64,000 nucleotides of DNA, from positions 56,494-120,493 of IMG/VR virus record IMGVR_UViG_3300035208_001055. One strand, written 5' to 3'. The notes below the pieces were generated by a model. That model saw only the letters and a list, made by a program, of their open reading frames with translations, had not been told where the DNA came from and did no database searches. The translations under genes and the position numbers were made by a program. This document shows, piece after piece, positions 8,155-57,745 of the stretch. The first letter of the stretch is position 1; each line of letters begins with the position of its first letter. This stretch comes from a virus (Duplodnaviria; Heunggongvirae; Uroviricota; Caudoviricetes).

Positions 8155-8310
8155 TCGTCTGCATCCAGGTCAAGAATATCAAACCCTTCTTTCAATCTTT
8201 CACCATAGTCCTCAGTACGACGTGGCTTACGGCGGTCCCATGAAGTGCGGCCTTCGTCAAGATCGTCTTGATCTTCGTCCGTCCAGTCTTTAGGCAGATC
8301 ACTTGGCATA
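8155..8310 (-). CDS. Small acidic hypothetical protein (~51 aa; below ORF-track cutoff)
   Basis: My own translation from the ATG at 8308: MPSDLPKDWTDEDQDDLDEGRTSWDRRKPRRTEDYGERLKEGFDILDLDADD. Its stop abuts the VRR-NUC start. Confidence 0.2.
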
Positions 8311-8559
8311 CTACACCTCGGCATGTTCGGTGGCTAGTTCTTGGTAGAGATCGAAAAGGTCCTTTTCGATCCGTTTGATGCGGCGTCCAATTTTCGGAGT
8401 CCACTTGTGGCATGGATGGCGGGCTATAACATCGCTGAATAGCTCGGCAATAAGACAAGTTCGATCTACTATCTCATGGAATCCTAGAGTCCCAGGTCGA
8501 AAATGCTTGTTCACTTGTTTCATTTGTTTACTCATTAGCACCACTCCCCGTCTTGCCAC
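8311..8559 (-). CDS. Hypothetical protein
   Basis: 82-aa ORF with protein-like composition. Preferred over the overlapping 8192..8458 ORF, which is R/T/C-rich. Confidence 0.3.
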   Translation of the reverse strand: MARRGVVLMSKQMKQVNKHFRPGTLGFHEIVDRTCLIAELFSDVIARHPCHKWTPKIGRRIKRIEKDLFDLYQELATEHAEV

Positions 8560-8856: not shown

Positions 8857-11403
8857 CTATGTCTCATTTAGGATCGGCGCTCGTATCTTCATCGTCTTCG
8901 CACCGCCCTTCTTCTCGGCCCAGTTTTGCATTCCTTGATTCCATGTCATACCAATAAGCGGGACCTGTGAACGAAATGATTCAACAACATCGTGAACGAT
9001 AGTAGCCACGGGGTCCACGGCGTCGGGGAGTGTCGGTATCATTAGTTCGTCGTGAATGTTTAACGGAGCAACAACAAACTCATGCACACCAGCCGGTTGC
9101 AAGTCCCAGATACGGCGTTCGAGAACCTTTGTAATCTGGGCACCGGGAGATTGAATTTCGTGATTAGCTGCGGCGCGCATGTTTGTCGCCTGCATGGCAA
9201 ACGCAGCCCCATACAAAGCCGACTGAACGGCACCCACAGCAAACTGCACTCGATCACGACGGCACACCTTAATCTTGTCGCCAATGATCTTCCAATGTTT
9301 CGGCGGACGGTGAGCCAACTGAAAGATTGTCTTAGCAATCTTATTTTCCAGCGTAAAGTAACGACGAAACCCCAAGAAGGACTCGATATAGTCGGCCGGT
9401 TCCGCCCACACAACAGCCTTACCCAGTCCTTCGGGCTGCGTCATCGAACAGAACAACTTGAAAGTCTTCTCACGCGCCTTCCGAACGCCAGGGAACTTGC
9501 GAAAGAATCCCTGCTCCGCTTTTTGGGCCACGTTAGGGTCAATGTGATATTTCTTCACGAGCGTATTCCAGTCGCCACCATAGATCATGGCGAACACGCC
9601 TTGTTTGCCTTTCGTATAGTAGTCAGGTTCCTTACCGTCGGACGCAAGAATATCCTCGTAAGTCTTGCCAGGGTACATTTCCATCGCAAAGAGACCGTGC
9701 AATTTCTTTGTCGCTCGCCCGGACCCGTCGCAATTCTCACACAACCCAACACACTTAGGACAGTCGGAAACCGGTGCTTTAGCTCCTTCTTTATGATGCT
9801 TTTTGCAGATCGTTTTGCCGCCGCCAAAACATTTGTGGCACTCAACTTTGGTCGTCAATGCCGACCGTAACCCCGGATCATTATACACGGCGTCCGCCAA
9901 CGTCACTTCAAACGAGTCAAAGTCACCGCCGCAAAGAATGTATCCCGACCACGCCAGAGGGAACATGCAACGCACATCAGTCGTATGCTTGATGCCTTGT
10001 GGATTCAAACCATCGCCACCAGACATACGAGTTGACAATGTGCCAATCACAATGAAACTGGCGTGAAACTTCCCGGCTCGCAGAAGTTTTTGATAGAGTT
10101 CCACTTCCTTCATAGCGATGCGGACGTTTAGAATCTCCTTCGCACGAGCAGCCGCAGGGTGCGGTCCAATAGGAAGCGTACCTAAACCACCACACCGAGG
10201 GCACTCGGAATTGGGGCCAAGATCAAGACAAAGAGTGCAAGGTTCTGGTTCTTTGATCTCCCAGCCAGAGATGGCTTCAATATGAGCCTTCTTGGTGCTG
10301 GTCTCAATATCAACGAGCGTCAATTCAACAGCATCCATTGCGGCCATCACATAGGCTTTGACATCCTTCGGCTTGTTGACATTGACTGGCGAACTAGCGA
10401 CAACGGCCCGTGACTTCGCCGCCAACTCTGCGATACCGTCGATATTGATGACAAAGCCACGCCAGCGAATCGCGGCCACCATACAGGCCAAAACTGAGTC
10501 ATCGTCGCCCGGCGTCGGATCACCAAAGTAGTGGTCGAGTTCACGGGTATAGACAATATCATCTTGAGCGTACTCACGGGCATCCGCTCGTGAAGCCCAG
10601 TGTTCAATGTTCTCTTTGATGATGCCGGGCCAAGCCTGACCAGCGGGGCGGTGTTTTCCGTCTGATCCTTTCTTCGTCACGACCCATTGCTCAAAGGGAC
10701 TTGATACAGCCAACGCCGTTGGTGCATAGCCAACTTCTATTGGACGGCGTTTAGGTTCGACATCCTTGTAGTGAAACTTAGGCTTTTTCTTCAGCAGATA
10801 TTCTGCTAAGAACTTCAAGCCGCCAGCCGGGTTAAACTTGAGAACCACATCTTTGAAATCAGGATCAATCTCGCCACGCCGGTCGTGTCGGTCGAAGACC
10901 TGCCACTTTGGCGCTTCGGGATCGTAAGACTTGGCAAAGTAGATGTTGTCGAATTTAATCCGCTGCTCCAATTCGGCAGCCAACACATACGCCAGCACAG
11001 TGGGCACACGTTTAATACGAACATCGTCACGTCCCATGAGAGACTGCATGGGACCTTTTCGAGCGTGCAACATAAGGTCCAGAGCACTGAATGGCTTTAG
11101 ACATGGACCTTCCTGGCCTTTCGGTTCCAACAAAGCAATCTCTTCAATATGTTCTTCGGGTATCCAATTCGGATCACAAAGTTTGAAGACAGTGTATATC
11201 TTACAAAGATGGAACCAGTCGAACGCAAGATTGAACCCGACGACAGTGTGTAATGCGACCCACTCAATCAACGTCAGAGTTTCATGGATAGGTCGTCGCC
11301 AGATTTCGTGCAGGGTAATCGGCCCGTCTTCCTCAGCATACTGTAACAACACAGCCATACCATGCAAACCGCAAGTTTCAGTGTCGATGTAGACTTTACT
11401 CAT
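8857..11403 (-). CDS. Family A DNA polymerase with N-terminal 3'-5' exonuclease domain and Cys-rich insertions
   Basis: Exo I VYIDTETCG. Motif A GGDFDSFEVTLA, motif B KGKQGVFAMIYGG, motif C IHDELM. Inserted CTLCLDLGPNSECPRCGG and CHKC...CPKCVGLCENCDGSG. Confidence 0.85.
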   Translation of the reverse strand: MSKVYIDTETCGLHGMAVLLQYAEEDGPITLHEIWRRPIHETLTLIEWVALHTVVGFNLAFDWFHLCKIYTVFKLCDPNWIPEEHIEEIALLEPKGQEGPCLKPFSALDLMLHARKGPMQSLMGRDDVRIKRVPTVLAYVLAAELEQRIKFDNIYFAKSYDPEAPKWQVFDRHDRRGEIDPDFKDVVLKFNPAGGLKFLAEYLLKKKPKFHYKDVEPKRRPIEVGYAPTALAVSSPFEQWVVTKKGSDGKHRPAGQAWPGIIKENIEHWASRADAREYAQDDIVYTRELDHYFGDPTPGDDDSVLACMVAAIRWRGFVINIDGIAELAAKSRAVVASSPVNVNKPKDVKAYVMAAMDAVELTLVDIETSTKKAHIEAISGWEIKEPEPCTLCLDLGPNSECPRCGGLGTLPIGPHPAAARAKEILNVRIAMKEVELYQKLLRAGKFHASFIVIGTLSTRMSGGDGLNPQGIKHTTDVRCMFPLAWSGYILCGGDFDSFEVTLADAVYNDPGLRSALTTKVECHKCFGGGKTICKKHHKEGAKAPVSDCPKCVGLCENCDGSGRATKKLHGLFAMEMYPGKTYEDILASDGKEPDYYTKGKQGVFAMIYGGDWNTLVKKYHIDPNVAQKAEQGFFRKFPGVRKAREKTFKLFCSMTQPEGLGKAVVWAEPADYIESFLGFRRYFTLENKIAKTIFQLAHRPPKHWKIIGDKIKVCRRDRVQFAVGAVQSALYGAAFAMQATNMRAAANHEIQSPGAQITKVLERRIWDLQPAGVHEFVVAPLNIHDELMIPTLPDAVDPVATIVHDVVESFRSQVPLIGMTWNQGMQNWAEKKGGAKTMKIRAPILNET

Positions 11404-11546: not shown

Positions 11547-11900
11547 TCAAAATACATTGTAACTCCATCCTTTGCCACGAATTGTTGCGTGCGTGACTGG
11601 CGTGCTCTCAAGATTACCATTCTTGAAGACAAGCGACACTCTCAAAAGCATCCCAATCCAATTATTGATCTGCGTTTTCTTGTCCCCCGAGAATGAATGA
11701 GTCAACACACCAAGAACAGGTTGCCGCAAACGTTGATCCGTTCCGGTGACTTCGACGACAGCCTTTTCAGGAATCGTGATTTTCAACTCGAAAATCTGAT
11801 CGCTCTCCGTCTCAATCGTTATGATTGTTCCGGCTTTCTGTTTCGTGATGTCGATGCCAACTTCACTCATTGGCATCTTCGATGTGGGTTTCGATGTCAC
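11547..11900 (-). CDS. Hypothetical protein
   Basis: 117-aa ORF. Confidence 0.3.
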   Translation of the reverse strand: MTSKPTSKMPMSEVGIDITKQKAGTIITIETESDQIFELKITIPEKAVVEVTGTDQRLRQPVLGVLTHSFSGDKKTQINNWIGMLLRVSLVFKNGNLESTPVTHATIRGKGWSYNVF

Positions 11901-12708
11901 GTTTCAACTCCTCAGTTGTAATGCTACCCGCACACCAAGCTAGGATACGTGTGGGCAGACCACTTATCGGCGGTTTCCGTCCCCACAGGTAACTAATCAT
12001 ATCAGAAATCTCGGCTTTCGTCCGGCGTGCATGACGTGGATTACGCTTCCGGGCTTGGAATAATTCGTTCTTAACCCTTTTCCGTTCTTCGGGTGGTTTT
12101 AATTTCGAGTCAAGTATTCGCTTTGCAATACTAATCACAGTGAGAGGATCAGACACCCAGGGTATCAATTCATTGAGATCAGATTGCGCGAGGCGTCCTG
12201 ACTCGAAATGTTTTTGCACCTCCACGGGCATCTGTAAAAGCAGAACGCGCCTACGCACCCACTCCATGTCACGCCTAATCTCCCGTGCAATTTCCTTAAT
12301 GCTTTCACCGTGGGGGAACAACTTCTGAATGCCTCGTGCTTCCTCAACAATGTTCAAGTCTTTCCGCTCAAGATTTTCGATGTAGTTGATTTTGTCGGCT
12401 TCAAACTTGGAAAGGTCATCCGGCATCACTTTGCACGGCACCGATGTCCAACGAAGTTGTTTTACTGCCGCCATCCGTCGAAAACCAGCAAGTAACTTGT
12501 AATTGAATCCAGGTTGCTGCGTCCAAGGTTGTATAATCAAAGGGTACATTAACCCCAAAGGATGCCCGCCATTATCTGAGATACTTTGCGCCAGTGATCT
12601 AACTGCCTCCGGTAAAAATATGTCCCGAACATTGAAACCGGAGTCTATCCAAATCTCACTGATTGGAACGAGATACGTTTTATACTGAGAGAGTTCTTCG
12701 AGCATCAA
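11863..12708 (-). CDS. ParB-like nuclease domain protein
   Basis: ParB/Srx N-terminal box YKLLAGFRRMAAVKQL (GxRR..A). 281 aa. Confidence 0.55.
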   Translation of the reverse strand: MMLEELSQYKTYLVPISEIWIDSGFNVRDIFLPEAVRSLAQSISDNGGHPLGLMYPLIIQPWTQQPGFNYKLLAGFRRMAAVKQLRWTSVPCKVMPDDLSKFEADKINYIENLERKDLNIVEEARGIQKLFPHGESIKEIAREIRRDMEWVRRRVLLLQMPVEVQKHFESGRLAQSDLNELIPWVSDPLTVISIAKRILDSKLKPPEERKRVKNELFQARKRNPRHARRTKAEISDMISYLWGRKPPISGLPTRILAWCAGSITTEELKRDIETHIEDANE

Positions 12709-13978: not shown

Positions 13979-14013
13979 TGTCGCCTCCCAGTTAAGATTT
14001 CAAGAGTTCAAAG

Positions 14014-14086
14014 TTGCGGGTACAGGACTCGAACCTGTGTGGGCGGCTTATGAGGCCGCTGAGATAGCCACTTCTCGAACCCGCAA
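14014..14086 (-). tRNA. tRNA-Met (anticodon CAT; initiator vs elongator vs Ile-lysidine not resolved)
   Basis: Cloverleaf folded by hand: acceptor TGCGGGT/ACCCGCA, anticodon stem GCGGC/GCCGC, loop CTCATAA, T-arm ACAGG-TTCGAGT-CCTGT. Confidence 0.7.
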
Positions 14087-14155
14087 TAACATCTGGCACC
14101 GCGCCACCCAAGTGAAACGGTGCCGGTACTTTTTCTACCGATGGTAGGCAAGCAG

Positions 14156-14230
14156 TCAAGGTGAGAGGACTCGAACCTCCGACCCCGTGGTCCCAGGCCA
14201 CGTGCTCTAGCCAAACTGAGCTACACCCTG
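14156..14230 (-). tRNA. tRNA-Pro (anticodon TGG)
   Basis: Acceptor CAGGGTG/CACCTTG (one G.U), D-arm GCTC-AGTTTGGCTA-GAGC, anticodon stem CGTGG/CCACG, loop CCTGGGA (unusual C33), T-arm GGAGG-TTCGAGT-CCTCT. Confidence 0.65.
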
Positions 14231-14236
14231 CGCAAG

Positions 14237-14309
14237 AGCCGGTGGAGGGAATCGGACCCCCGACAAGCAGTTTACAAAACTGCGGCTCTGCCAACTGAGC
14301 TACACCGGC
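14237..14309 (-). tRNA. tRNA-Thr (anticodon TGT)
   Basis: Acceptor GCCGGTG/CACCGGC, D-arm GCTC-AGTTGGCA-GAGC, anticodon stem GCAGT/ACTGC, loop TTTGTAA. The T-loop TCCGATT is atypical (C at 55). Confidence 0.6.
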
Positions 14310-14906
14310 TTTTATTTTCTGCCAGAGATAATACTTGGTGAGCAATTTGCGATAAAGGCTTCCAGGCGATTCTCTGACATTTCCTGACGTAATCAACCCA
14401 GACCGTTCAATGGTGTTACCGACATACTGACTGCAAAAGATGCCGCGAACCTCGTAACCCTTCCACCAACCTCGCAGCATGTATGGACGGCCGAGTTGAC
14501 TCTCTGCATACTTCTTCATCTCCGCCAACTGTTTCACGGTGTAGGGTTTCCTTGGACTCATTGAAAACCAAGAAAAATCACGTCGCTTCTGGCTCTGTGT
14601 TTGCAACTCTTTTTCGTACTCGTCCAACCGTATCTTTCGCACGCATGGAGGGACTGCCTCATAGACCCACGGTTCATCATTGCCATCATACAACACAATT
14701 GCTGCGTGCGTGATGTCGCTCCCGGTATTTCTAAGAATTGGCCCAACTAAAAGACCGCCACGCCAAAAGATCACCGAACCATCTCGCGTATTCGTCGGAG
14801 ACGCCGGAGACGGAGGTGACGGTGGTTGTATCTTGTCGCCTGGAATCGGGGTCAACATTGTCAATGCCACCGCCACAGCCAACAAACCGGCAAAGTAATA
14901 TCGCAT
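14310..14906 (-). CDS. Secreted protein (signal peptide; possible permuted papain-like domain); true 3' end unclear
   Basis: N-terminus MRYYFAGLLAVAVALTMLTPIPG (signal peptide). The frame stays open through the three tRNA genes to 13992, so the real stop cannot be placed; I gave the tRNA-free part. Confidence 0.35.
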
Positions 14907-14921
14907 AACATACCTCCTATG

Positions 14922-14995
14922 TTGGACTACTAGGACTCGAACCTAGAACCTCGGCGGTATCAGCGTCGCGCTCTAACCACTTGAGCTATAGTCCA
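14922..14995 (-). tRNA. tRNA-Ile (anticodon GAT)
   Basis: Acceptor TGGACTA/TAGTCCA, D-arm GCTC-AAGTGGTTA-GAGC, anticodon loop CTGATAC (stem has one A.C mismatch), T-arm CTAGG-TTCGAGT-CCTAG. Confidence 0.6.
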
Positions 14996-15063: not shown

Positions 15064-15237
15064 CTAAAAACCGCACACATACCGGATAGCGTACCACGGC
15101 CAAATCACCGTATTGTATACCAAATCTGACGTGAGTTCGCCGAACGCAGCGTGTGCCCAAAGTAGCACATTCGTTACGCCGCCCGCCCAAAACGCGAGTA
15201 GGAGTGTGACAACATAACTAATCCATTTCCTAACCAT
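15064..15237 (-). CDS. Small membrane protein
   Basis: Internal Met gives MVRKWISYVVTLLLAFWAGGVTNVLLWAHAAF... (about 57 aa, hydrophobic). Confidence 0.2.
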   Translation of the reverse strand: MVRKWISYVVTLLLAFWAGGVTNVLLWAHAAFGELTSDLVYNTVIWPWYAIRYVCGF

Positions 15238-15643
15238 GCGAGGCTCCTTGACGTAAACGAGACTCCTGCATCGTGGCGAAAATAATATCGTCGATGTCAG
15301 GCAATTCTCTGCCTTCCAAATCGAGATTCCGCACAATGAGTTGTCGTATCTCATCGGTCGCCGACGTAAAGGCGGTGGCCAACTTTTCACGAATCCCTTC
15401 AACATCGCGTGCCAGAATTTCCACCTTCTGACAGTCCCCTAGAGCCGTTTGGAAAGCAGGGTGGAGATTGTCGTTGGCGGTATGATTCGCCGTCGCCACA
15501 TCCAACGTGCGCCGTTGTGCTCTCGCATCGCTACGAGCCGCCCGTCCCAATTCATCCAACTTCTCAAGGGCGTCCCTTCCGTTCCAAACCAACGGTAACG
15601 AGTTCCACAGGTCATAGAGACCTGTTTCAATCTTCGTGTTCAT
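15230..15643 (-). CDS. Hypothetical protein
   Basis: 137-aa ORF. Confidence 0.3.
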   Translation of the reverse strand: MNTKIETGLYDLWNSLPLVWNGRDALEKLDELGRAARSDARAQRRTLDVATANHTANDNLHPAFQTALGDCQKVEILARDVEGIREKLATAFTSATDEIRQLIVRNLDLEGRELPDIDDIIFATMQESRLRQGASHG

Positions 15644-16266
15644 CGTGTAAAGACTCCTACAAAAGCCTTGGCTCCGTTCGACCAGTAATCGTTACAGACT
15701 GGTATCCCAAACTTCTTGACACGCAAGCCAAGGAGGCCGTTCAAAAGTAACTCCGGCGTCAATACGTGCGGATGGCACGTGTCGGCCGGTATCCACAGCC
15801 ACTCAAATATCCGCAAGACGCCACCGTCCTCCTTGATATGCTGCCTCGCATTCGCCAGCACCTTCAACGGGTCTTGAACATGCTGAAGTACATTGTAAAT
15901 CCAAACCTCGTCATAGAGCCCACCGGAAGGCAACTCTTCACCAGGCGCACGGACAAAACTGATGTCGTGACGACGATAGCGCCGATAGACGGAGGCAGGC
16001 CAGTTAATCGGGTCAACAACAACGAGCATGTGTGCATTATAACAACGCAACGTCATCGACACGGGGCCTCCGCCGACATCAAGTACAGACTTGCCACGCA
16101 TGTCGAGTTCGCCACCGCTATCGCCGTAGTCGTCAAACACTCCCATCTCGCGTCCGTACATCTCTTGTTTGACAAACTCTCCCCATGCACGCATCCCGAG
16201 GCAGTTACCCCAATAACCAGCCTCACCGGCCTGGGCATCTTCCCATTGTGCTTCATTCGTCGTCAT
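15640..16266 (-). CDS. Class I SAM-dependent methyltransferase
   Basis: Motif I VLDVGGGPV, and an acidic post-I strand LVVVDP. Start moved to MTTNEAQ (ATG 16264-16266); the low-complexity M/T/K stretch upstream is the antisense of the acidic-repeat gene. Confidence 0.55.
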   Translation of the reverse strand: MTTNEAQWEDAQAGEAGYWGNCLGMRAWGEFVKQEMYGREMGVFDDYGDSGGELDMRGKSVLDVGGGPVSMTLRCYNAHMLVVVDPINWPASVYRRYRRHDISFVRAPGEELPSGGLYDEVWIYNVLQHVQDPLKVLANARQHIKEDGGVLRIFEWLWIPADTCHPHVLTPELLLNGLLGLRVKKFGIPVCNDYWSNGAKAFVGVFTR

Positions 16267-16507
16267 CGTCTTCGTCCTCGTCTTCGTCTTCGTCTTCGTC
16301 GTCCCAGTCGTCGATGTCGTCGTCTTCATCTTCGTCCTCGAAGTCTTCGTCATCGTCGTCCCAGTCGTCATCTTCGTCCTCGAAGTCTTCATCATCGTCA
16401 TCCCAGTCCTCGTCGTCGAACTCGTCGAGATCATCTTCGAGGTCATCGTCAAGATCATCGTCATCATCAATGAACGGGTCGTTCAAATTCAGATCGTCAG
16501 CACTCAT
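16253..16507 (-). CDS. Hyper-acidic protein (about 70% Asp/Glu): candidate DNA-mimic / anti-restriction protein
   Basis: MSADDLNLNDPFIDDDDDLDDDLEDDLDEFDDEDWDDDDEDFEDEDDDWDDDDEDFEDEDEDDDIDDWDDEDEDEDEDEDDDDE. Strong SD (AAGGAGAG) 7-13 nt upstream of the ATG. Stop lies 8 nt before the methyltransferase ATG. Confidence 0.5.
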   Translation of the reverse strand: MSADDLNLNDPFIDDDDDLDDDLEDDLDEFDDEDWDDDDEDFEDEDDDWDDDDEDFEDEDEDDDIDDWDDEDEDEDEDEDDDDE

Positions 16508-16575
16508 GGGTTCTCTCCTTCAAAGTGATAAAACAAAAGGTCACAAGTTCCTGTCAATGGCGCTCAGTCGCCTCC

Positions 16576-16980
16576 TCAGTCCAAAGCGATCTCTGGACCG
16601 CAATGCTCCTCAACGTTCTCTTTCTCGAACGGCCCGACAACCGAGCCCGCTTCAGTTTCCTCCGCCGGTTCATCCACCGGTTCCGATTTTGCGTCAATCA
16701 CGTTCATGGCTTGCTTGTCCGCCGGTGTGATAGGTCGCACCCGTGGCTTAACGGCATACCATTGTAACAGCGCCTTGAACACATCATCCGGCCCAAGTGT
16801 CTCAAGTACAGCGACAGGAAACTGCGACTTCGCACCAGCGAAAAAGACGACCCGGTAATTGAGAACCGAACCGTCTGGCAGTGACGCCTTAATCGTCGCC
16901 TCGATCTGAGGGTTGATTTGCTGGTCGCCTAAATCATGCAACTGCCCATCCAAAGGTCCGCCAATCATCAACATTTTCAT
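16576..16980 (-). CDS. Hypothetical protein
   Basis: 134-aa ORF. Confidence 0.3.
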   Translation of the reverse strand: MKMLMIGGPLDGQLHDLGDQQINPQIEATIKASLPDGSVLNYRVVFFAGAKSQFPVAVLETLGPDDVFKALLQWYAVKPRVRPITPADKQAMNVIDAKSEPVDEPAEETEAGSVVGPFEKENVEEHCGPEIALD

Positions 16981-17480
16981 ACAGATTTCTCCTCGCTCGT
17001 TTTGGTATCAAGAATCGGCCAATTTCCATCCTCGCACGTTTCACTACGTATTCTAGCCTTTGCCGCTAGAATACAGCCACATGCCATACATCTCCATCCG
17101 ACACGCCTGTTTGTCGGGCACTTGTCACAGATAGTGATACGTGTTTCATACTCGTCCCTTGTCACCGTTTTGAAGCCATCTATCGCAAACTGCGCCATTG
17201 CCACCGCGAAGTTCCATACTTGTGTTGCAAAAGGTGGCGGCACGGTGGCCGCATTATCACGCAAGTCCTTCAAGTGTGCAATGTCAAATGGTGGACGTGA
17301 TTGTTCGATACGGGTGACTTCTAAATTCGGGTCAGCCAACAATCCCTTAATTTCGTCCTCCGTGAGTCGAGAATCTGTCACCATTTTTACATACTCCACC
17401 ATCTCATCCTGAGTCACCCAACTCGGGATTGTTAGTTTCGTCACGCGAAATCCACGTCGTTTAAGACCCGAAAATGGCAT
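16977..17480 (-). CDS. Hypothetical protein with C-terminal Cys cluster (putative Zn-binding)
   Basis: CDKCPTNRRVGWRCMACGC. Confidence 0.3.
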   Translation of the reverse strand: MPFSGLKRRGFRVTKLTIPSWVTQDEMVEYVKMVTDSRLTEDEIKGLLADPNLEVTRIEQSRPPFDIAHLKDLRDNAATVPPPFATQVWNFAVAMAQFAIDGFKTVTRDEYETRITICDKCPTNRRVGWRCMACGCILAAKARIRSETCEDGNWPILDTKTSEEKSV

Positions 17481-18657
17481 CTATGTAATACTCCCACGTT
17501 TGAAAAAATGTGGCTCCAAATTCAATATCCCACTCCCACGCTGCGTTAAATACCGAACCACTGTTGCCCGACGAACCATTTGGTCCGGGGTAACTGCATG
17601 TGCAACCACTTCCGCTGTCATAACTGTATGACGTATAACCACTGCACCCATTCGTGTACGAACTCGAAGAACTCCATCCGCCTTCCCACCAAATCCCGCA
17701 CATCATCCAGTTATGCGGTTCCCAGGGACTCATGTAGGGGCAACCTGCGCCATCGTCAGGGGACAAAAGCATTGATCCGTACTGAGAGGAGTTGCTTGAG
17801 GTCCACGTATCGGTGTGTTCGGTGTCGAATAACGTCCCTTTGATTGGATGATAGGCGGTTGATAGATTCTCAACTACTGGTTCTATGTCTTGTATCAATT
17901 GAAGCAATTGCCAGATACCGAGATTTGTGCCGCCGCCCGTTTGTGGCGTGAGAACCCATTCGTCATCATCGGAACCCTCTTCAGTGCCCCCGAAAGGCTC
18001 TAAAATAGTTCCGTCCACACCTATAGGTCCGACCGTGGCAAATTCCCATATTCCCGAATCAAAGTAACGTGTCCACATCCAAAATCTGTGTGTTTGTCCT
18101 GGCTCTGCTAATTTTTGATTGACATAAGATTGCCAACCGCTTGGGCTACCTTCACCGTCCCCAGACTCAGCTAACCAACGCGCGCCATTCTTAGCTTGCC
18201 CCGAGCACCATTTGAATGTCCACTCAGCGACCCCCGCTATCTCATCGTAATTTTGCTCATCAGTTGTGTTTGGATAGGCTGACGCCCGCCGCAAGTCATT
18301 AACTTCATCCTCATGCCAGAATTTTGCATCATCCTTGGCAATCGCCCACTCCATCTCATATTGATCGGTTTCAATTGCCGTCTTCAAATCAACGATGTCG
18401 GATTTCATCCACACTTTAGGTGCAGTTGGAATTGTTATTGACGACTCGGGGACAATAGCAACATGCGTCTCGACAATCTGCTTATACGCCTCGAACGTGA
18501 AAGGAAGATTCTCATGTTCAGGCGTTGGATGATCGTGCCGATTTACCGGATACTGAAATGCGCTGCCATCGCACCACACCGGAGGATCAAGGTCCGGCCG
18601 TAATGGTTTCCAGAAAGTTATCTCTGGACGATTCGGGTCATTAGGATCGGCAGGCAT
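17461..18657 (-). CDS. Hypothetical protein (Trp-rich, 398 aa)
   Basis: Long ORF with no motif I recognise. Confidence 0.3.
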   Translation of the reverse strand: MPADPNDPNRPEITFWKPLRPDLDPPVWCDGSAFQYPVNRHDHPTPEHENLPFTFEAYKQIVETHVAIVPESSITIPTAPKVWMKSDIVDLKTAIETDQYEMEWAIAKDDAKFWHEDEVNDLRRASAYPNTTDEQNYDEIAGVAEWTFKWCSGQAKNGARWLAESGDGEGSPSGWQSYVNQKLAEPGQTHRFWMWTRYFDSGIWEFATVGPIGVDGTILEPFGGTEEGSDDDEWVLTPQTGGGTNLGIWQLLQLIQDIEPVVENLSTAYHPIKGTLFDTEHTDTWTSSNSSQYGSMLLSPDDGAGCPYMSPWEPHNWMMCGIWWEGGWSSSSSYTNGCSGYTSYSYDSGSGCTCSYPGPNGSSGNSGSVFNAAWEWDIEFGATFFQTWEYYIDAIFGS

Positions 18658-20492: not shown

Positions 20493-21368
20493 TTACGTTT
20501 TGCTTTTCTCCGGTTCCGACGATGCACGTACTTCTTGTACCACTTCTTCACATTGGGTGCATCCATCGAGCGTGTTGTTCGTTTCCAACTGTTGGATCGA
20601 CTCATCATCTACTCCTTCATCTACTCCCTCGATCACTTCCTTACAACGTTGATTTGCGGCCACGGCGTCGGCCTCAATAATCTCGCAACCTTGAAATTGC
20701 CGTCTCAACTTCAATGCCACCATCCCGGTCGAACCGTACCCTGCGAATGGATCAATGATCGTGTCGCCCGGATTTGAATGCGTCTCAATCAGGCGAGCCA
20801 TTAGCGGTTCTGGCTTTTGACAATACCGCTTAGGTCGAAACAACTCCGGTATGTCGGACCAAACGTTCGTCACTCTCTTGAACTCGGACTTGGCCGGATA
20901 CTTTGCGTTGAATCCAGCGTATCCTCGTTTCTCTGCTAGAAGAGGTATGTTGAATGTGAACGACTCCGACATCGTGTACCAAAGAATCTCTTCGCGTGTG
21001 AAAAGGTAGTCGTCCTTTTTTCCGTATGCTCGCTTCTTGCCCCATGTGATCCAGTTTTGATACACAAAACGACGATCCATTGCTTCGATCATACGCAGAA
21101 GCGGACGTTGTTGTGATTTACCAATCCCGCCGAAAAAGACTATCGACCCTGTGGGTTTTAGAACTCTTCGACAAGCTGTGAAAATCCAAAAAAGCCACGC
21201 TACAAAGTCTTCCACACTGTTCCATTGGTTGTCCCACGAATCTTTCACAATCCCATAGTACGGCGGATCAGTAAGCACCAAGTCCACCGAGTTCTCCGGT
21301 AGACTTTCGACAAACTTCAGTGCGTCTGAGTGCTGTATGTATTGCATGGGTCTCACTGCGCGATTCAC
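20493..21368 (-). CDS. DNA methyltransferase, beta class (N6-adenine or N4-cytosine)
   Basis: Motif IV LTDPPYY precedes motif I IIDPFAGYGSTG, which is the beta-class order. Confidence 0.75.
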   Translation of the reverse strand: MNRAVRPMQYIQHSDALKFVESLPENSVDLVLTDPPYYGIVKDSWDNQWNSVEDFVAWLFWIFTACRRVLKPTGSIVFFGGIGKSQQRPLLRMIEAMDRRFVYQNWITWGKKRAYGKKDDYLFTREEILWYTMSESFTFNIPLLAEKRGYAGFNAKYPAKSEFKRVTNVWSDIPELFRPKRYCQKPEPLMARLIETHSNPGDTIIDPFAGYGSTGMVALKLRRQFQGCEIIEADAVAANQRCKEVIEGVDEGVDDESIQQLETNNTLDGCTQCEEVVQEVRASSEPEKSKT

Positions 21369-25904: not shown

Positions 25905-26810
25905 CTACTCCTGCTTCTTGCGATCACGGTGCTGTTTAAGTACCTGACCACGCATACGTTGTCGAATCCGCGTTCTGAATTTTTCCACGCTGTCAGAGTC
26001 TAAGTGTACCACCCATCGTAAGGCGCAAAGCCAACCGTCCAACGGGGTCGTACAATTCAAACTAGCAAGCCACAGTGGACCACTTTGTGGTCTCTCCAAT
26101 TCTGGTAACAACTCTCGCAGGCCCCGAAGTCGCGGTTGCGCGTCCACCTCGCCCGCGTAAAATCTCTCTAACCGCCCATCCAACTTCGCCGTGCGATATT
26201 GTCGTAAAACTGTCTGTACGAGAGCGCGAAATTCTTTCAGTGGGAGTGTCTTTGCGTCCGGTAGATATTGACCCCACATTGTATACGGTAGTCGTGACAG
26301 CCAGTATGCGGCCTCTAAAGACATCTCCCCAAGATCGGCGGCGCGTCGGTATACCTTATACCTCGCCAACTTTGCCAATCCCAGCATCTTACGAATCCAA
26401 TATGGGTTCTTATGCAGTAGTTGGCATAACTCTGCTTGGCTCATCCCTTCCTTCTCGTGGAGAATCTTACGTATCTGCCGTGCAAAATCGGATGGTGCTG
26501 TTTGGAGTCGTTGTGCATTAGTTACAATCTGTATAGCCAACACCTCGTAATTTGTCAAATCACGAATCGCACAATGTATCTCGGTCTTCTGGGCATCTCT
26601 CGAAGCTGCAACCCGACACCTCCCATCGACCACTTCAAACATTCCCGATGTCTTTTGCGATGGACGCACACAAATACCATTCAATACGCCATACTTTGCA
26701 ATTGAATCTCGTAGTTCTAGGTACTCGATAGTCGTGCGATCCACCGGTCGTAACACAACTGGGGGGTCGATTAACTTCGTCAACGGTATGGCACGGAAGT
26801 CATCTGACAT
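25905..26810 (-). CDS. ParB-like protein (ParB/Srx N-domain + HTH)
   Basis: EVVDGRCRVAASRDA (GxRR..A box) and an HTH MSQAELCQLLHKNPYWIRKMLGLAKL. Confidence 0.55.
   Translation of the reverse strand: MSDDFRAIPLTKLIDPPVVLRPVDRTTIEYLELRDSIAKYGVLNGICVRPSQKTSGMFEVVDGRCRVAASRDAQKTEIHCAIRDLTNYEVLAIQIVTNAQRLQTAPSDFARQIRKILHEKEGMSQAELCQLLHKNPYWIRKMLGLAKLARYKVYRRAADLGEMSLEAAYWLSRLPYTMWGQYLPDAKTLPLKEFRALVQTVLRQYRTAKLDGRLERFYAGEVDAQPRLRGLRELLPELERPQSGPLWLASLNCTTPLDGWLCALRWVVHLDSDSVEKFRTRIRQRMRGQVLKQHRDRKKQE

Positions 26811-56536: not shown

Positions 56537-57745
<1,209 letters not shown>

Follow-up and report, generated by a model that had tools for sequence, protein, structure and literature searches.

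The DNA analyzed here (the window) is a 64,000-nucleotide (nt) stretch of a virus genome, positions 56,494 to 120,493 of IMG/VR record IMGVR_UViG_3300035208_001055, and the gene in question is a short, hyperacidic open reading frame (ORF) that overlaps the start of a gene for an S-adenosylmethionine (SAM)-dependent methyltransferase (Table 1). The acidic ORF encodes the protein MSADDLNLNDPFIDDDDDLDDDLEDDLDEFDDEDWDDDDEDFEDEDDDWDDDDEDFEDEDEDDDIDDWDDEDEDEDEDEDDDDE, in which 64 of 84 residues (76%) are Asp or Glu (48 D and 16 E), with 4 F, 3 W, 5 L, and 2 I among the others and no K, R, or H, giving a computed net charge of about -64. Runs of D/E begin at residue 4 of the N terminus (MSADDLNLNDPFIDDDDD...), and across the six frames of the window this ORF is the sole stretch with at least 50% D/E per 40 amino acids (aa). 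Its repeat units encode DWDDDDEDFEDEDD-type sequence, and a shifted self-similar array spans positions 16250 to 16474. An earlier note on this DNA, covering an interval (15640-16507) that takes in both genes, had described an 84-aa protein of about 70% Asp/Glu with a strong Shine-Dalgarno (SD) sequence beside a SAM methyltransferase. All of this was borne out, with a somewhat higher acidic content, an AAGGAG motif 7 nt before the ATG, and, for the neighbor, NCBIfam and PDB similarity in addition to Pfam matches. In contrast, the note had the ORF ending 8 nt before the methyltransferase ATG, which in fact lies inside the last 14 nt of the acidic ORF. An independent Joint Genome Institute (JGI) gene call on an identical contig agrees on both the 84-aa ORF and the 14-nt overlap, and the exact protein is recorded on five contigs; it is therefore not an assembly artifact.

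No close relatives of the phage were found among 50,697 cultured-phage records. Relatives were sought in IMG/VR and JGI metagenomes, guided by the neighboring genes, and the block was found in contigs labeled as peat, bog, salt-marsh, lake, and subsurface-sediment samples. These relatives bear on the choice of coding frame. A poly-Ser ORF on the opposite strand had been considered an artifact in the earlier note, which proposed conservation of the acidic frame in related phages as the check. The poly-Ser frame is an automatic mirror of the acidic one, as GAN reverse-complements to NTC, and this, when shifted by one, reads TCN, that is, Ser. The acidic frame is open from an ATG start in all 16 distinct versions of the gene, with a GGAG-type motif before the ATG in nearly all of them, whereas in 13 of the 16 the Ser frame is interrupted by 1 to 5 stops, and it mostly lacks a start that would cover the Ser run. 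Between the window and a near relative (L069) there are 17 codon differences, with 14 at codon position 3 and 0 at position 2 (11 synonymous and 3 D/E swaps), an excess that cannot separate the acidic from the Ser frame because the third positions of the two coincide; the choice of frame is based instead on the stops and absent starts in the Ser frame. The acidic frame is also codirectional with a gene chain in which a 134-aa gene (p134) is followed, after 68 nt, by the acidic ORF, then by the methyltransferase gene (overlapping by 14 nt) and a 137-aa ORF (p137; overlapping by 4 nt), and wherever a relative has both genes, the acidic-ORF stop and the methyltransferase start interlock. It is the acidic frame that genuinely codes for protein; its poly-Ser mirror is an artifact.

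The 16 versions are 63 to 99 aa long and contain 57 to 81% D/E, 7 to 13 aromatic residues (F/W/Y), and 0 to 5 basic residues, and their longest unbroken D/E runs measure 5 to 16 residues. The D:E ratio varies across versions from 21:23 to 49:4 and the charge is kept; therefore, selection acts on charge and not on the DNA repeat. In the acidic cores of 15 nonredundant versions, F, L, Y, and W make up 170 of the 206 residues that are neither D nor E (83%; 70 F, 47 L, 29 Y, and 24 W), and the amino acids reached from D/E codons by one substitution (A, G, V, N, H, K, and Q) total 27 of the 206. F and L are two substitutions away from D/E codons and W is two or three. Since F, L, Y, and W are thus not mutational neighbors of these codons, the bulky punctuation is selected rather than being mutational noise. 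As judged from these sequences, selection keeps the charge density, the lack of basic residues, and the bulky hydrophobic punctuation, but not the sequence or the exact length. A functionless, slippage-prone GAY/GAR repeat that merely happens to be open would account for the internal tandem repeats and for the variation in repeat number among close relatives (74 aa in L044, 76 aa in L045, and 78 aa in L043). Yet the ORF, its start, its SD sequence, and its composition are kept while the adjoining methyltransferases are only 58 to 67% identical, basic residues and the neighbors of D/E codons are excluded, and the comparison with L069 shows no second-position changes, which makes such a repeat highly improbable.

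Protein similarity searches returned nothing for the acidic ORF. BLASTP gave no alignment between the window protein and its syntenic counterpart in L027, and phmmer against 5.8 billion proteins gave no match at an E value of ≤0.001; composition-corrected scoring is blind to such sequences, and clear family members give no BLASTP alignment either. A search with hmmscan against all of Pfam-A (E value of ≤0.01) returned 0 families, the Ocr and ArdA profiles included, and PHROGs and NCBIfam returned none. The earlier note had called for a disorder prediction. AlphaFold2, run on the single sequence, a mode that often yields low confidence by itself, predicted no secondary structure (mean predicted local distance difference test score [pLDDT], 55.7; predicted template modeling score [pTM], 0.14). 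Hydrophobic residues number 14 of 84, and there is no hydrophobic segment. The protein is probably intrinsically disordered, as far as such modeling goes. A folded helical dimer copying bent B-DNA, as in Ocr, is not supported, as no fold is predicted and the 14 hydrophobic residues are too few for the rigid B-DNA-shaped fold that characterizes Ocr and ArdA; an ArdA-type protein (three domains, ~165 aa) is likewise not supported, given the absence of a Pfam match, the length of 84 aa, and the lack of a predicted fold. Mimicry of the tip of an SSB (a protein that binds single-stranded DNA [ssDNA]), which requires a [D/E]n-I/L-P-F end with a free terminal Phe, was ruled out by the C termini of the versions (...DEDDDDE, ...DEDED, ...DDDDED, ...DDDDDD, etc.), with L055 alone ending in ...DDAY.

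We tentatively favor a general decoy model, to which we would assign a probability approaching, though not reaching, an even chance. The product of the acidic ORF would be a stand-alone disordered polyanion whose D/E runs are broken every few residues by Phe, Trp, Tyr, or Leu. After infection, this protein would act as a flexible nucleic acid mimic (ssDNA- or RNA-like) that binds electrostatically to the basic surface with which one or several proteins of the host, or possibly of the phage, hold nucleic acid. Base-like or anchor contacts would be made by the aromatic and Leu side chains, and DNA or RNA would be competed away. Candidate targets would include a restriction or defense nuclease, RNA polymerase (RNAP), a nucleoid-associated protein, and a protein of the SSB or recombination type. 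The overlap between the two genes, acidic ORF and methyltransferase, would be an expression arrangement, with a shared mRNA and with the ribosome-binding site and ATG of the methyltransferase in the 3' end of the acidic ORF, and not a functional dependence.

A stricter version of mimicry, in which the protein fills the DNA groove of a type I restriction-modification enzyme or a BREX-like system in the manner of Ocr or ArdA, would suit the extreme acidity, the lack of basic residues, and the conservation of a phage-encoded gene within a lineage, and acidic proteins that mimic DNA form a recognized class of anti-restriction factors (PMC3439906, PMC2731889). However, Ocr and ArdA act through a rigid B-DNA shape, and the acidic protein has neither a match to their profiles nor a predicted fold; moreover, the adjoining methyltransferase is not a DNA methylase, a separate DNA methyltransferase being encoded elsewhere, and the acidic ORF sits in the replication module. 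We consider this version quite unlikely. Of the DNA-mimic proposal in the earlier note, then, the general mimic or decoy logic stands, as it fits the charge and has a precedent in SPO1 Gp44, whereas the likeness to Ocr and ArdA finds no counterpart in family or structure. The same note had suggested a polyamine decoy, and a sink for Mg2+, Ca2+, or polyamines that perturbs host ribosomes, nucleoid, or enzymes could draw on ~64 carboxylates per 84 residues. But a 10-kDa protein present in catalytic amounts cannot buffer cations at millimolar levels and the conserved aromatic punctuation would have no role in ion binding, so that we regard a cation sink as very unlikely.

Several points weigh against the decoy model. 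Its mechanism is drawn from composition and analogy, and the AlphaFold2 result behind the disorder is a weak test of fold. The acidic ORF is located in the middle of the genome, within the replication module, rather than at an evidently early or leading end like T7 ocr. An extended peptide carries less charge per unit length than duplex DNA does, and Ocr-type duplex mimicry is therefore unlikely. In addition, D/E-rich N termini abort translation in Escherichia coli through intrinsic ribosome destabilization, an effect enhanced by low Mg2+ and countered by nascent-chain length and bulky residues (10.1101/2021.02.02.429294). By analogy, the protein yield could be low, given D/E runs from residue 4 on, and the bulky residues could alternatively be translation aids that keep the chain translatable.

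Table 1. Features of the acidic-ORF locus in the window
Feature	Position	Strand	Remarks
tRNA cluster Met-CAT, Pro-TGG, Thr-TGT, Ile-GAT	14013..14995	minus	downstream
137-aa ORF (p137)	15230..15643	minus	overlaps methyltransferase stop by 4 nt (ATGA); codirectional chain; no family match
Class I SAM-dependent methyltransferase, 208 aa	15640..16266	minus	Pfam Methyltransf_23/11/12/25; phrog_3603, unknown function
Antisense poly-Ser ORF	16185..16730	plus	
Hyperacidic ORF	16253..16507	minus	ATG start, TGA stop, 84 aa
Overlap, 14 nt, ATGACGACGAATGA	16253..16266	minus	methyltransferase ATG 16264-16266 and acidic-ORF TGA 16253-16255
GAGG, possible methyltransferase SD, within acidic ORF	16276..16279	minus	9 nt before methyltransferase ATG
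Tandem repeat, 42 nt (14 aa), ~2.8 copies	16322..16439	minus	Tandem Repeats Finder period 42, 81-93% matches
Spacer, 68 nt, 134-aa gene to acidic ORF	16508..16575	minus	
Shine-Dalgarno AAGGAG	16515..16520	minus	7 nt 5' of acidic-ORF ATG
134-aa protein (p134), synteny marker upstream of acidic ORF	16576..16980	minus	no family match in Pfam, PHROGs, NCBIfam

The spacer upstream of the acidic ORF is identical to that of L069 at 70 of 73 nt. Sigma-70-type promoter and terminator scoring around the acidic ORF, spacer included, identified none, and neither Rfam families nor inverted repeats were found in the acidic-ORF region. At the other end of the ORF, the methyltransferase start (MTTNEAQW...) was fixed by alignment with homologues, and the enzyme is read in the +1 frame relative to the acidic ORF. 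In all 14 versions that have the methyltransferase, its ATG, built from a GAT-Gnn codon pair near the acidic-ORF end, lies 11 to 23 nt before the acidic-ORF stop in the same relative frame. We read the overlap as shared expression signals, that is, cotranscription and possible translational coupling, and not as shared function.

This arrangement would also be expected of a cis-acting leader, in which aborted translation of the D/E codons, sensitive to Mg2+ or the state of the ribosome, gates the overlapping methyltransferase through termination-reinitiation. Besides the invariant placement of the methyltransferase ATG, the D/E runs start at residues 4 to 14, where the risk of ribosome destabilization in E. 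coli peaks, and MgtL is a precedent for sensing of this kind. On the other hand, about 10 to 20 codons suffice for such a leader, and the conserved length here is 63 to 99; two relatives, L158 and L228, keep an intact acidic ORF without the downstream methyltransferase, and methyltransferase homologues of other lineages manage without an acidic ORF. Independent initiation is possible too, as the methyltransferase has its own GAGG 3 to 12 nt upstream of the ATG in 9 of the 10 acidic-ORF loci examined, very Glu-poor versions included. The conserved F/W/Y/L residues and the exclusion of basic residues likewise exceed what coupling needs, and we find a leader function quite improbable.

The methyltransferase itself is weakly similar to UbiG, CmoB, and CmoM (PDB and NCBIfam); it has no match among DNA methylase families, and the (D/N/S)PP(Y/F/W) motif is not visible in its sequence. 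It belongs to the generic class I SAM enzymes and is not a DNA methylase. A true DNA methyltransferase (phrog_67; E value of 8e-51) is encoded at 20493-21368 (minus strand), just upstream of the exonuclease gene. The idea that methyltransferases with an acidic partner would be more basic was rejected, as net charges range from -4 to -9 and average -6.0 both with and without the partner; with net negative enzymes on either side of this comparison, a simple electrostatic complex with the acidic-ORF product is disfavored. A closer relationship, in which the acidic protein is a substrate or regulatory partner of the enzyme (e.g., through Asp/Glu carboxyl methylation), could explain why the overlap is conserved in 14 versions. 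But each gene occurs without the other, the methyltransferases offer no compensating basic surface, and their resemblance is to UbiG, CmoB, and CmoM and not to CheR or PCMT-type carboxyl methyltransferases; we hold this to be extremely unlikely.

Presence of the acidic ORF follows the phage lineage. It lies directly upstream of about half of the close methyltransferase homologues (58 to 67% identical) and is absent from about half, a split that tracks phage lineage and not methyltransferase phylogeny alone. Wherever flanking sequence is available, the acidic ORF has a p134 homologue (47 to 78% identical) upstream of it, in many cases separated from it by a 95-aa protein (p95), whereas at loci without the acidic ORF the upstream genes are unrelated and include none of the p134 and p95 markers. 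No family in Pfam, PHROGs, or NCBIfam was found for the lineage neighbors p134, p95, and p137. In L158 (840-1110, minus strand), an intact, Leu-punctuated 86-aa acidic ORF is followed by a methyltransferase reduced to a 6-codon stub (ATG ACG ACG ACT GAT TCC TAG, encoding MTTTDS and a stop) that still overlaps the acidic ORF, and then by a different gene. In L228, a metagenome-assembled genome (MAG) of Thermoguttaceae, an 85-aa acidic version is separated by 77 nt from a tRNA cluster, with no methyltransferase between them. The anti-restriction pairing of acidic protein and methyltransferase implied by the earlier note is thus not upheld, given a generic enzyme, homologues without the acidic ORF, and two members that keep the ORF alone; the link between the two genes is positional. 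A further copy, in L230 (~9160-9345; Planctomycetaceae MAG CAWBLA010000006.1), is broken by two apparent frameshifts into pieces in three frames (MPADDPRYVESPEEWE, DEDEDEDFEDEDDPYFDDPDEDEDDDE, and DDDWDDEDEDEEYEE followed by a stop), with a tRNA-Asn gene next; it is either a decaying prophage-remnant gene or the result of assembly indel errors.

The exonuclease of the block shares 60 to 71% identity with genes from five genome bins of Planctomycetota (Thermoguttaceae, Planctomycetia, and Planctomycetaceae), one of which is a 4.2-Mb chromosome. Going by the binning and these similarities, a planctomycete is the probable host, and there are probably prophages among the relatives. In L226, L227, and L229, no acidic ORF is present close to the exonuclease gene. 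The phage has two separate ParB-like genes (11863-12708 and 25905-26810, minus strand), which, with the relatives in Planctomycetota chromosomes, raise the question of whether it is plasmid-maintained or integrated.

The window as a whole is part of a tailed-phage genome with most genes on the minus strand. A structural module at ~32 to 62 kb holds the terminase, portal, tape measure, and tail fibers, and a replication and DNA metabolism module at ~1 to 31 kb, which includes the acidic ORF, carries genes for ligase, DNA polymerase, the two ParB-like proteins, a phosphoesterase, four tRNAs, exonuclease, the DNA methyltransferase, helicase, and primase. Among other genes of the window, a lineage-conserved 398-aa protein (17461-18657, minus strand) has a net charge of about -40, a C-terminal part rich in Cys, Trp, Gly, and Ser, and no family match, and a 402-aa ORF (56537-57745, minus strand) matches collagen-like tail-fiber families over repeated stretches (e.g., phrog_819; E value of 7.5e-76).

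The position of the acidic ORF among exonuclease, helicase, primase, polymerase, and ParB genes is what would be expected of a protein that electrostatically chaperones or shields some basic protein of the phage, as histone chaperones do, or of a surrogate SSB-type acidic tail for phage replication or recombination proteins. The phage encodes several small, very basic proteins, for example, at 7172-7474 (+16; isoelectric point, 11.9) and 8192-8458 (+11), but no basic gene adjoins the acidic ORF or was shown to covary with it. Acidic segments in other phages occur mostly within SSB-like proteins beside recA, as the tail version would have it; here, however, the C termini are D/E runs and not an [I/L]-P-F tip, and no SSB was identified in the window. 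We judge a chaperone or tail function unlikely.

In cultured phages, nucleotide matches to the acidic ORF were confined to acidic segments of larger proteins and were compositional, several of them in SSB-type proteins next to recA. GAY-rich matches in Bacillus phage Goe26 (L231), Achromobacter phage Motura (L232), and Xanthomonas phage PhiXhv-12 (L072) fall in proteins of 333 to 504 aa encoded just upstream of recA or two short ORFs away from it, one of which is annotated as an SSB. The pattern suggests that long acidic segments are recurrent in SSB-like proteins of large phages. A pattern search of IMG/VR gave 147 ORFs, including 15 that stand alone, have at most 130 aa, and contain at least 50% D/E; none of the 15 lies beside this methyltransferase except that of L158, which belongs to this lineage. 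Small hyperacidic ORFs with aromatic punctuation may thus be a type broader than this lineage. IMG/VR contigs that have no relation to the lineage (L106, L111, and L146) carry a different small hyperacidic ORF, ~93 aa from its ATG, with DDDWDD and SDSDEESDEDE repeats and a tRNA-Glu(TTC) gene within ~45 nt downstream.

In the lineage studied here, too, a tRNA cluster follows the block of acidic ORF and methyltransferase, both in the window and in relatives. The lineage clusters (Asn, Pro, Met, Thr, Val, Gln, Ile, and Ser) do not include Asp or Glu tRNAs that would meet the codon demand of the acidic ORF. A 304-aa ORF (13992-14906, minus strand) runs over three of the tRNA genes (14013-14309) and is an artifact there; the real gene is probably at ~14310-14906 and encodes a C92 (YaeF/YiiX-type) permuted papain-like amidase (Pfam E value of 4e-6). 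CmoB and CmoM, the weak best matches of the methyltransferase, are tRNA U34-modifying enzymes, and tRNAs for Pro(UGG), Thr(UGU), and Val(UAC) recur in the downstream clusters of the lineage (the window and L037, L044, L055, L057, and L058). In E. coli, the isoacceptors Pro(UGG), Thr(UGU), and Val(UAC) carry (m)cmo5U34. We speculate that the methyltransferase might modify the phage's own tRNAs.

A bolder extension of the decoy model would be an unrecognized phage class of free-standing, fully disordered nucleic acid mimics that use aromatic "pseudo-bases" to neutralize host defense or housekeeping nucleic acid-binding proteins; we regard this as doubtful. As a possible subvariant, the acidic ORF, the CmoB/CmoM-like methyltransferase, and the tRNA cluster might together form a module that protects translation or counters tRNA-targeting defense. 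If the acidic protein is a working decoy, the phage would mimic nucleic acid by charge density and a few bulky side chains, with no fold, whereas known DNA mimics are almost all folded. Such genes fall into a blind spot, being nulled by composition-corrected searches and, with no K or R, yielding no tryptic peptides. Because they are invisible to homology searches and tryptic proteomics, hyperacidic genes may be common and uncounted among anti-host and anti-defense genes. The acidic ORF is also an extreme natural test case for the translation of poly-acidic nascent chains and adds a conserved, lineage-specific gene for the barely studied phages of Planctomycetota.

Known systems resemble the acidic ORF in different respects. 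Among cultured phages, the "Asp-rich protein" of mycobacteriophage cluster D (e.g., Gumball gp60, 312 aa; also called "CDC45-like") gives a 71 to 75% nucleotide match over ~200 nt and shares GAC/GAT-rich coding DNA and an unknown function; its acidic stretch, however, is a segment of a ~310-aa protein, and the similarity is compositional, with homology not demonstrable. MgtL-type leaders, too, have a D/E-rich N-terminal nascent chain and are located upstream of a second gene with which they are coupled; in the acidic ORF, D/E-rich sequence likewise falls within the first ~10 residues. In contrast, MgtL has 17 aa and acts only in cis, whereas the acidic ORF has 63 to 99 aa with conserved bulky residues and is not a short ORF lacking a role beyond the downstream gene. 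DSS1/Sem1 is an acidic disordered protein of ~70 residues that suppresses the DNA binding of its partner; DSS1 blocks DNA binding by BRCA2 in the HD-OB1 region (PMC11329725). DSS1/Sem1 is nevertheless eukaryotic, much less acidic, and equipped with conserved motifs, and no evolutionary relation is implied.

The acidic tails of SSBs (E. coli SSB, T7 gp2.5, and T4 gp32) are closer in character, being disordered D/E runs with aromatic residues encoded in replication modules; their own known roles are to occupy ssDNA-binding clefts and to recruit replication and recombination proteins, and they compete with ssDNA (T7 gp2.5 literature). However, these tails belong to proteins with an oligonucleotide/oligosaccharide-binding (OB) fold and have an essential free C-terminal Phe in a hydrophobic tip, whereas the acidic ORF is free-standing and ends in a D/E run constrained by the methyltransferase overlap. 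Like the acidic ORF, T7 Ocr (gp0.3) and ArdA are small acidic proteins of mobile elements that are presumed to act as competitors of DNA in the binding of a DNA-binding protein. Of the 116 residues of Ocr, 34 are acidic (PMC4872106). Ocr and ArdA are, in contrast, folded dimers with a rigid shape and a charge pattern that copies B-DNA, and the acidic ORF has no profile match, no predicted secondary structure, and not enough hydrophobic residues to form a core.

Among documented analogues, the closest is the disordered acidic ssDNA-mimic domain of Bacillus phage SPO1 Gp44. Gp44 has a mass of 27 kDa and three parts, and it requires its N-terminal DNA-binding domain and its C-terminal region for activity, whereas the acidic ORF corresponds to the acidic segment alone, and its low complexity precludes showing homology to Gp44; the regular F/W/Y/L punctuation was analyzed for the acidic-ORF family alone, and the comparison with Gp44 leaves it aside. 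Residues 56 to 122 of Gp44 are disordered, comprise two repeats, are ssDNA-like in simulation, and bind RNAP beta/beta' by two-hybrid analysis (PMC8208478). Both this segment and the acidic ORF are phage encoded, span ~65 to 85 residues, and consist by more than half of D/E (57% in Gp44 and 76% in the acidic ORF), with no Arg, Lys, or His and with internal repeats. They also share, by prediction only in the case of the 84-aa protein and by prediction or simulation in that of Gp44, a random-coil character that would follow from charge repulsion.

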